The notes below the pieces were generated by a model. That model saw nothing but the letters and a program-made list of their open reading frames with translations. It was not told where the DNA came from and ran no database searches. Positions 53,998 to 54,760 of a stretch of DNA of 64,000 nt are shown piece after piece. Within the stretch, counting starts at the first letter, position 1, and each line of letters starts with the position of its first letter. Source of the DNA: Pristiophorus japonicus (lineage: Eukaryota). The translations under genes and the position numbers were made by a program. The stretch covers positions 26,722,001 to 26,786,000 of the forward strand of contig NC_091999.1 of NCBI RefSeq assembly GCF_044704955.1, written 5' to 3'.

Positions 53998-54047
53998 CTG
54001 CAGTCACCGTCACCATGGTCCCTTGTCCCCAGTAGCCCATTGCGTAA
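53998..54047 (-). pseudogene. IGHJ: IgH J segment, probably germline-fused D-J
   Basis: YAMGYWGQGTMVTVTA, donor GTAAGG at 53997; lacks the usual YFDY start. Confidence 0.92.
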
Positions 54048-54075
54048 CACAGTGAGACACGTTGTGTCAAATACT
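54048..54075 (+). other. Recombination signal sequence, 12-bp spacer, abutting (D)J
   Basis: Heptamer CACAGTG 54048-54054, spacer 54055-54066, nonamer TCAAATACT 54067-54075; no nonamer at 22/23 spacing. Confidence 0.85.
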
Positions 54076-54402
54076 CAGGCGGACTGTTAACTGTAAAATA
54101 CAGAGATTAAATTCCACCCAGCTCTAAAAACCCGATTCTGACTGTCGTAAGAGTGAATCAGCGAGATATTTCATTTTGTAGCGTTCATTATATTTACAAA
54201 AATGATTGGAATACTTCTCAAGCATCTGTGCATGTTCAACATGGCAATCAATAGTAATAAAGAAGAAAACTGTTATACATTTAAATATATATATATATAT
54301 ATATATATATAACTTATTTCTAATTATTTTTATTTAAGCCTCAGTTCCTTCGACGCTCCTGGCGTGGTAATGGTCGCAGGTTTTAGCAAACTCCCTGTCT
54401 GG

Positions 54403-54440
54403 GGTATTTGTATGGAGAGCTCACTCTGTATTGCACCGTG
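54403..54440 (-). other. Recombination signal sequence, 22-bp spacer, abutting V(D)
   Basis: Heptamer CACGGTG 54440-54434, spacer 54433-54412, nonamer ACAAATACC 54411-54403. Confidence 0.9.
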
Positions 54441-54760
54441 ACCCACTCCCGTAGTCCTTCCTTGCACAGTAATAGATGGTGGTGTCTTCGCTCCTCTTGT
54501 TCTTTATGTCCAACGTGAAGATGTTGTTTGAAGTGTCTTTGGATGCATTAAATCGGCTGTCGATCCCTGGGACGTTATTCTTGCTCGATGGAGTGTAGTA
54601 GTAAACCAGCCACTCCAGCCCCTGACCGGGAACCTGGCGGACCCAGTTCATGCCATAGCCGCCAAAATCGAACCCGCTGGTTTACAGGTCAGTCTCAGGG
54701 AGACTCAGGAAATCCTGGTCTTTGCCTCGGGCTGAGTCAACACCACATCCGACTGGACAC
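54441..54760 (-). pseudogene. IGHV: IgM-type VH exon with fused D-like segment; stop plus frameshift
   Basis: [26 protein letters not shown](fs)[24 protein letters not shown]...[15 protein letters not shown]...[19 protein letters not shown] at 54707-54705; 1-nt deletion at ~54680. Confidence 0.95.

Follow-up and report, generated by a model that had tools for sequence, protein, structure and literature searches.

Elasmobranch IgM clusters in which some gene segments are already joined in the germline raise the question of when, in which order and by which agent such joins arose, and whether the signals that remain still serve a working antibody gene. The window (the whole stretch of 64,000 nucleotides analysed here) contains a cluster of this kind, with V fused to D1 and J placed behind a recombination signal sequence (RSS) with a 12-bp spacer. 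A VD-DJ arrangement was reportedly described in skate by Harding in 1990. As a germline configuration it is already in print: VD-J and VD-DJ are listed as germline forms (PMC5192425), V D1-D2J is listed for horn shark and little skate (PMC2193153), and about 50% of IgH loci are given as joined (PMC3308330), these and the other sources cited below being available in part. The accessible portions of PMC4279169, PMC12227049 and PMC2191167 add little to this. Heavy-chain germline joints were called hard to dissect by Lee et al. (2000; PMC2193156), and the available part of that paper states that no expression was found for joined horn shark heavy chains. We argue that the window very probably holds a dead IgM cluster, in which V is fused to D1 and the D2 signal to J in inherited DNA. 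These fusions likely go back to two RAG-type joins, made separately in ancestral germ cells before the cluster was inactivated and duplicated.

Layout and damage of the window cluster

Read from the window letters on the minus strand, V-AA-D1-(22-RSS) faces (12-RSS)-TT-J, which confirms the VD-DJ layout proposed by a sequence-only reading of this DNA. The features of the locus are as follows, in window coordinates.

54889..54934, minus strand: leader exon, IgM (MRSAIAFVLLLALLS), open
54460..54760, minus strand: VH exon of family I, a pseudogene with a TGA and a 1-nt deletion
54458..54459, minus strand: AA between V and D1 (GA in L026)
54441..54457, minus strand: D1 fused to V, full-length 17 nt (GGACTACGGGAGTGGGT), the length of free D1
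54403..54440, minus strand: D1 3' RSS, CACGGTG + 22 bp + ACAAATACC
54076..54402, no strand: sequence between D1 and D2, containing a (TA)n run and aligning to the interval of canonical L063/L066
54048..54075, plus strand: D2-type 12-RSS, CACAGTG + 12 bp + TCAAATACT, now before J, from alignment to canonical D2
54046..54047, minus strand: TT between heptamer and full-length J, likely a D2 remnant judging by canonical D2 and J lengths
53998..54045, minus strand: JH segment with GT donor, from the window letters
47140..47460, minus strand: Cmu1 region (ends approximate), two in-frame stops, Tyr to Cys before the second Cys
46322..46666, minus strand: Cmu2 region (ends approximate), open
42280..45384, minus strand: LINE (endonuclease/RT frames) inserted in the Cmu2-Cmu3 intron
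40665..40973, minus strand: Cmu3 region (ends approximate), Tyr in place of the first Cys
39390..39755, minus strand: Cmu4 and secretory tail, tail damaged
30141..39390, no strand: insertion of about 9.2 kb following Cmu4, by comparison with L028, an intact paralog

The V ends in YYCAR (Cys codon 54468-54466, AGG 54462-54460, minus strand). The stretch of about 20 nt claimed to lie between this motif and a heptamer/22/nonamer signal was borne out as AA and the 17-nt D1, followed by the heptamer CACGGTG (54440-54434), 22 bp and the nonamer ACAAATACC (54411-54403), the latter one change away from the ACAAAAACC of sister clusters. The 12-bp RSS claimed for J is likewise present, with the heptamer CACAGTG at 54048-54054 (plus strand) and the nonamer TCAAATACT at 54067-54075, ahead of TT and J (together 54047-53998, reading YAMGYWGQGTMVTVTA and ending at the GT donor). 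The two facing nonamers are 327 bp apart, in agreement with the earlier estimate of about 330 bp free of other signals, and no further CAC heptamer with a nonamer at three mismatches or fewer was found between the facing RSSs. A cryptic 12-spaced site, TACAGAG, within the spacer of the 22-RSS was discarded, being without CAC. When 53998-54470 was simulated 5000 times under a dinucleotide-Markov model, the facing RSS pair never appeared; a single 22/23 site was obtained in 0 and a single 12 site in 4 of the simulations.

The order of leader, VH, D and JH, then four Cmu exons within about 15 kb, is that of an elasmobranch IgM minicluster, the exons being taken by us to be Cmu from shark IgM motifs and the four-domain-plus-tail layout. 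Two lesions of the V exon had been missed earlier: its frame is interrupted by a TGA stop (54707-54705), and 1 nt has been lost at about 54681-54683. In the secretory tail, a short deletion is followed by inserted sequence that truncates it before the terminal Cys. No membrane exon was detected across the whole window by blastn and tblastn (E 1e-3), and the same query succeeds in 5/5 paralogs tested, one of them split. Given the stop and frameshift in V, the stops in Cmu1 and the broken tail, the window copy is non-functional and unable to encode an antibody; as a candidate protein-coding locus it is refuted by its V and Cmu lesions. The LINE of the Cmu2-Cmu3 intron is 96% identical to a LINE in the Cmu4-membrane intron of L028. 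The RT/endonuclease-like reading frames of this region lie at 42382-45387. Elsewhere in the window, a second set of such retroelement frames lies at 31549-35455, and a long low-complexity tandem repeat upstream of V (58569-61095) holds minus-strand open frames of the 'LDPVSVYIT' type.

Related clusters in the genome

A J pattern search of the genome gave 80 matches, all classified, and the Cmu4 and V-RSS searches added four units; the resulting counts are lower bounds, with 100 of 111 Cmu4 and 100 of 138 heptamer-J matches listed, and diverged clusters may escape them. Two VH families were distinguished, with Cmu exons confirmed downstream of two family-II and five family-I paralogs. Family II comprises at least 15 units, i.e., 12 canonical V(23)-(12)D1(22)-(12)D2(12)-(23)J clusters, two V-DD-J and one V-DJ. 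It is strongly diverged (L063-L080 and L131, on C27, C90, C3 and small contigs), and each of the 12 canonical clusters found belongs to it. The V of this family (GESHKLSC..., with a shorter FR3) looks IgW-like, which is our presumption. Family I comprises at least 69 units, nearly all on contig C23: at least 26 VD-(12)J clusters with the window junction, nine VD-(12)J with a second junction, nine V-D1-(12)J, 20 in which V is free but D..J fused, and five fully joined. The window junction was present in 26 of the 40 scored matches, 23 on C23 (23.0-66.3 Mb) and three on small contigs; three copies follow each other about 140 kb apart (G000:C23:26635734, 26775990 and 26916247), and over 3801 bp two of these three are identical.

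The canonical layout was found in 0 of the at least 69 family-I clusters. For 39 of the 100 Cmu4 matches listed (111 in total), the nearest 70 kb contained no listed J. Of these 39, 36 were without V or J 8-18 kb upstream, two belonged to fully joined clusters and one to family II. The V-RSS pattern returned 29 matches, 28 of them known and one a V-DDJ pseudogene, and all 14 matches of the D2-J spacer search were family II. From the heptamer-J pattern (100 of 138 matches listed) one further locus was obtained; it lies on C13 and has several D segments. Short V ends and J segments with a 23-RSS, as opposed to a native layout of long V ends and 12-RSS J, thus exist in this genome, but only in family II. 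Several of the Cmu4 without V or J on C23 are found at a distance of about 120 kb from a window-type VD-(12)J cluster, upstream of it, where that cluster has no listed Cmu4 itself; this points to a large duplicated unit with V-J split from C. On C13, L094 (G000:C13:187003000-187004750) combines a different Ig-like J with a long spacer and two or more free D segments, and is probably another isotype.

Within family I, nine V(23)-(12)D1(22)-(12)J clusters (L036-L040, L045, L047-L049) have an open V and form a one-D IgM with a 12-RSS J. Nine copies of the second VD-(12)J family (L027-L035, e.g., G000:C23:59258511-59259295), at most 1.3% apart, keep V open and both CACs, and in L028 Cmu1-4 are open and a membrane exon is present; these copies would be the strongest candidate for a heavy-chain locus that works in one step. 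In L053, L055-L061 and L073, V is free and a 17-nt D1 is directly followed by a 17-nt J, without D2, a pattern expected from a D1(22)-to-(12)J join; this group falls outside the supported 12-RSS-J clade. The window family has decayed much further, with open V exons in 0/26 copies vs. 9/9 and 9/9 in two sister groups, and a lost CAC in 12/26 vs. 0/18 sister clusters. The same V lesion is found in 25 of the 26 copies, and the window family is a pseudogene spread by duplication. The search for paralogous VD-DJ clusters with intact frames, proposed along with the sequence-only reading, therefore succeeded for the junction, present at 26 loci, but not for the open V.

The two proposed joins, their rivals and their likely order

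Compared with canonical and unjoined clusters, V is fused to D1 in the window and the V 23-RSS, the D1 5' RSS and the spacer between them are all gone. Free D1 measures 17 nt in 9/9 V-D1-(12)J clusters, so the window D1 is intact, and 16 of its 17 letters are those found for D1 in clusters of the L042 type. Where V is unjoined in family I, it ends in AGG-[G/T/C]-AC(C); the window reads AGG-AA-D1 and L026, the basal member of its family, AGG-GA-D1. The GA of L026 would most simply be an unjoined V end AGGGAC(C) minus 1-2 nt, and the window AA this templated GA after one later substitution, leaving at most one letter unexplained. The claim of inherited N-nucleotides between V and D1 is thus not supported, since AA is one substitution from templated GA and N-nucleotides are unnecessary, a reading of AA that rests partly on one diverged copy, L026, whose support is only 78 in the second tree. 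In the second VD-(12)J family, V and D1 are joined via a GGAC overlap. The joints sit exactly at RSS borders, with short trimming, the inner signals gone and no unambiguous P or N letters; RAG is likely to have been their agent.

On the J side, canonical clusters have a D1-D2 interval to which the window spacer is homologous, the alignment extending from the D1 3' RSS through the D2 5' RSS, and the canonical D2 5' RSS (CACAGTG / CCAAATACT) occupies the same aligned position as the window 12-RSS. The D2 3' RSS, the J 23-RSS and the spacer between them are gone, and the D2 5' 12-RSS is kept. Canonical D2 is 13 nt long and starts with GTAC, and canonical J has 17 nt up to the Trp codon and starts with AC. 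Two extra letters (TT/TA) precede a full J in 32 of the 44 clusters with a 12-RSS J, and none in the other 12, so that D2 is nearly or wholly gone and at most 2-4 nt of it would survive on J. By this comparison, the J-side event is best read as a putative coding join via the AC common to the starts of D2 and J. The D2 remnant is assigned from the other VH family, about 44% diverged in aligned flanks, because no unjoined family-I D2 was found in G000; alignment to unrearranged clusters thus assigned D1, J and the spacer, but gave no free family-I D2. Of the V-D1 and D2-J joins claimed to have occurred in a germ cell, the V-D1 join, its germline status and the remaining D1-D2 interval stand. A recognisable D2 on J does not, as only 2 nt lie ahead of a full-length J.

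An RSS swap, through a hybrid joint of the D2 5' signal end to the J coding end or a RAG-independent deletion between identical heptamers, would have given J its 12-RSS and removed D2 whole, with the window TT being P-nucleotides or a later insertion; its outcome is identical in sequence to that of a coding join and indistinguishable from it in one genome. A hybrid joint between RSSs of the same direction yields a deletion, and both RSSs concerned have the same orientation, so that exactly such a deletion would result. The full 17-nt J set directly on the heptamer in 12 of the 44 clusters (L027-L035, L045, L047, L049), which a coding join explains poorly, also favors the swap, as do the nine V-[D1 J] clusters with 17 nt of D1, 17 nt of J and no D2, and one germline hybrid joint is on record in horn shark (PMC2193153). 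However, the two extra letters of the 32 others, the window included, fit the D2 start, and in both trees the zero-letter forms occupy two separate positions amid the two-letter ones, which fits a later 2-nt loss or conversion. Clear D2 stubs (ACATTG, ACA, ATA) in other joined family-I clusters moreover indicate that heavy D2 trimming occurs in the family. We hold the swap to be unlikely, though far from negligible, and retain the coding join. That family I never possessed a D2 and has a native single-D layout would agree with the lack of free D2 or 23-RSS J in all of the at least 69 clusters found, but the homology of spacer and 12-RSS to the canonical D1-D2 interval and the persisting D2 stubs make it highly improbable, as does organism B, a relative, with D2-like letters behind the same 12-RSS (run X6, one contig) and in family-I-like junctions.

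Somatic joining happens once in a given cell, whereas the window junction occurs at 26 diverged loci, with flanks up to 4.4% apart (9.8% with L026) and independent RSS mutations; it is therefore inherited and no somatic intermediate, and the germline origin claimed for it holds. VD-DJ is a normal somatic intermediate of IgM in nurse shark lymphocytes (Malecek et al., 2008; PMC2435157), and some copies are maybe assembly duplicates, L001 and L002 being identical over 3801/3801 bp, which may reflect a recent tandem duplication or an assembly duplicate. Yet those intermediates, of the same configuration as the window, are cell-specific with diverse junctions, and the window junction is fixed and multicopy; a lymphocyte VD-DJ molecule or artefact in the assembly is extremely improbable. 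Among the public-run data, all of them contigs, the window V-D1 junction is present as a loose end in X1 only, possibly the assembly's own sample. In X5, from another sample and study of organism A, one 106-nt contig bridges 12-RSS and J of the second VD-(12)J family. A further contig of X5 is spliced, lacking the leader intron, and links a V end through four added letters to the DDJ junction that L042-family clusters have in the germline; it is out of frame. This one contig shows that one pre-joined family, of the L042 type and not the window family, makes its last join somatically. Transcripts of the window family were absent from X5, X7 and X8, but X7 and X8 yielded 0 contigs and X5 only 5 and 1, so that their absence says nothing about expression. 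Such a V-DDJ cluster with four letters added at its last join lends some credit to a working one-step heavy-chain locus keeping germline TdT additions, as do the two intact CAC heptamers of the window, which obey the 22/12 rule, the open V and both CACs of the nine second-family copies, and L028, the only one of these followed downstream. This is nonetheless very unlikely for the window: V has its stop and frameshift, Cmu1 two stops, Cmu3 a lost Cys, the tail is broken, no membrane exon was detected and none of the 26 V exons is open. Its AA is near-templated, and the available part of Lee et al. (PMC2193156) reports little TdT evidence in germline light-chain joints. Because V and Cmu are broken, the light-chain-like single joining step proposed for the locus is not supported; the 22/12 pair would be a formal RAG substrate, but its joining would yield no antibody from the window copy.

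Trees were built from flanks with junction letters excluded, the careful tree containing 31 rows with 10 of the 26 window-type clusters. The window-type rows form one clade, with a support of 100 when all 26 are included and of 100/99 for the 10 sampled in the careful tree; in the second tree, built from spacer and J flank, the clade including L026 has only 78. The second VD-(12)J family groups with the V-D1-(12)J clusters (99/98). Support for the exact sister of the window family is weak, with 89 and 87 in quick trees, and the careful tree gives no placement. A single clade of both VD-(12)J families is rejected (p-AU 0.019); one of all 12-RSS-J rows is not (p-AU 0.46), which is no proof. From this rejection and the different junctions of the two VD families, we infer that V-D1 was joined at least twice independently, likely on an already joined J side. 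The D2-J step likely preceded V-D1, the two being separate in time, because nine sister clusters are V-D1-(12)J with V-D1 still unjoined. In the proposed history, J would first have come to lie behind the D2 5' 12-RSS through an early D2-J deletion that spared no more than 2-4 nt of D2, producing V(23)-(12)D1(22)-(12)J clusters that are still extant. V would then have joined D1 in one such cluster, with V trimmed by 1-2 nt, D1 intact and N bases unneeded. Inactivation of V may have followed, through one lesion common to 25 copies and another in L026, before segmental duplication carried the unit to at least 26 loci.

Meaning for pre-joined heavy-chain clusters

The window cluster resembles the germline part-joined IgM clusters of other elasmobranchs in its layout, its RSS types and the VD-DJ state of non-rearranged DNA, and in both cases canonical and fully joined clusters coexist (PMC5192425, PMC2193153, PMC3308330, as far as their available parts describe them). 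It differs from those in that a single join has been multiplied into a pseudogene family of at least 26 copies and that little or no D2 is left on the DJ side. It differs also in having unjoined sisters of nearly identical sequence, which make the junction readable and the steps orderable. Nurse shark light chains also carry germline joins of the RAG type with little TdT evidence, and the joined NS4 genes derive from several independent joins of split ancestors with short trimming (PMC2193156, available part); here, on the contrary, a heavy chain is concerned, in two steps, with one RSS pair left and a non-functional family. The horn shark IgM cluster of Kokubu (1988) contains a germline hybrid joint with an inversion between D1 and D2 (PMC2193153, available part). 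The swap considered above would similarly bring an RSS of a given spacer class next to a different coding segment, but by a candidate deletion that gives J a 12-RSS, and under that rival reading only. A literature search, with most subscription papers and supplements outside its reach, returned no account of a VH family without a canonical cluster, nor of a D2-less J with a 12-RSS.

As the configuration is known and the window copy is dead, textbooks remain unchanged. Near-identical joined and unjoined sisters make germline junctions of heavy chains, called difficult in 2000, readable, and their comparison points to D2-J before V-D1, with short trimming or microhomology and TdT unneeded. The nine intact VD-(12)J and nine V-D1-(12)J copies are test cases for pre-joined clusters finishing their assembly in B cells and for a J working with a 12-RSS. 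More speculatively, and we think it rather doubtful, family I may have lost the V-D1-D2-J arrangement altogether, a germline RSS swap having led to one-D and then to one-step clusters, so that most heavy-chain clusters would be pre-joined and would form an ordered record of recombination in germ cells. What deserves the attention of specialists is the picture at the level of the family, along with the possible RSS swap.
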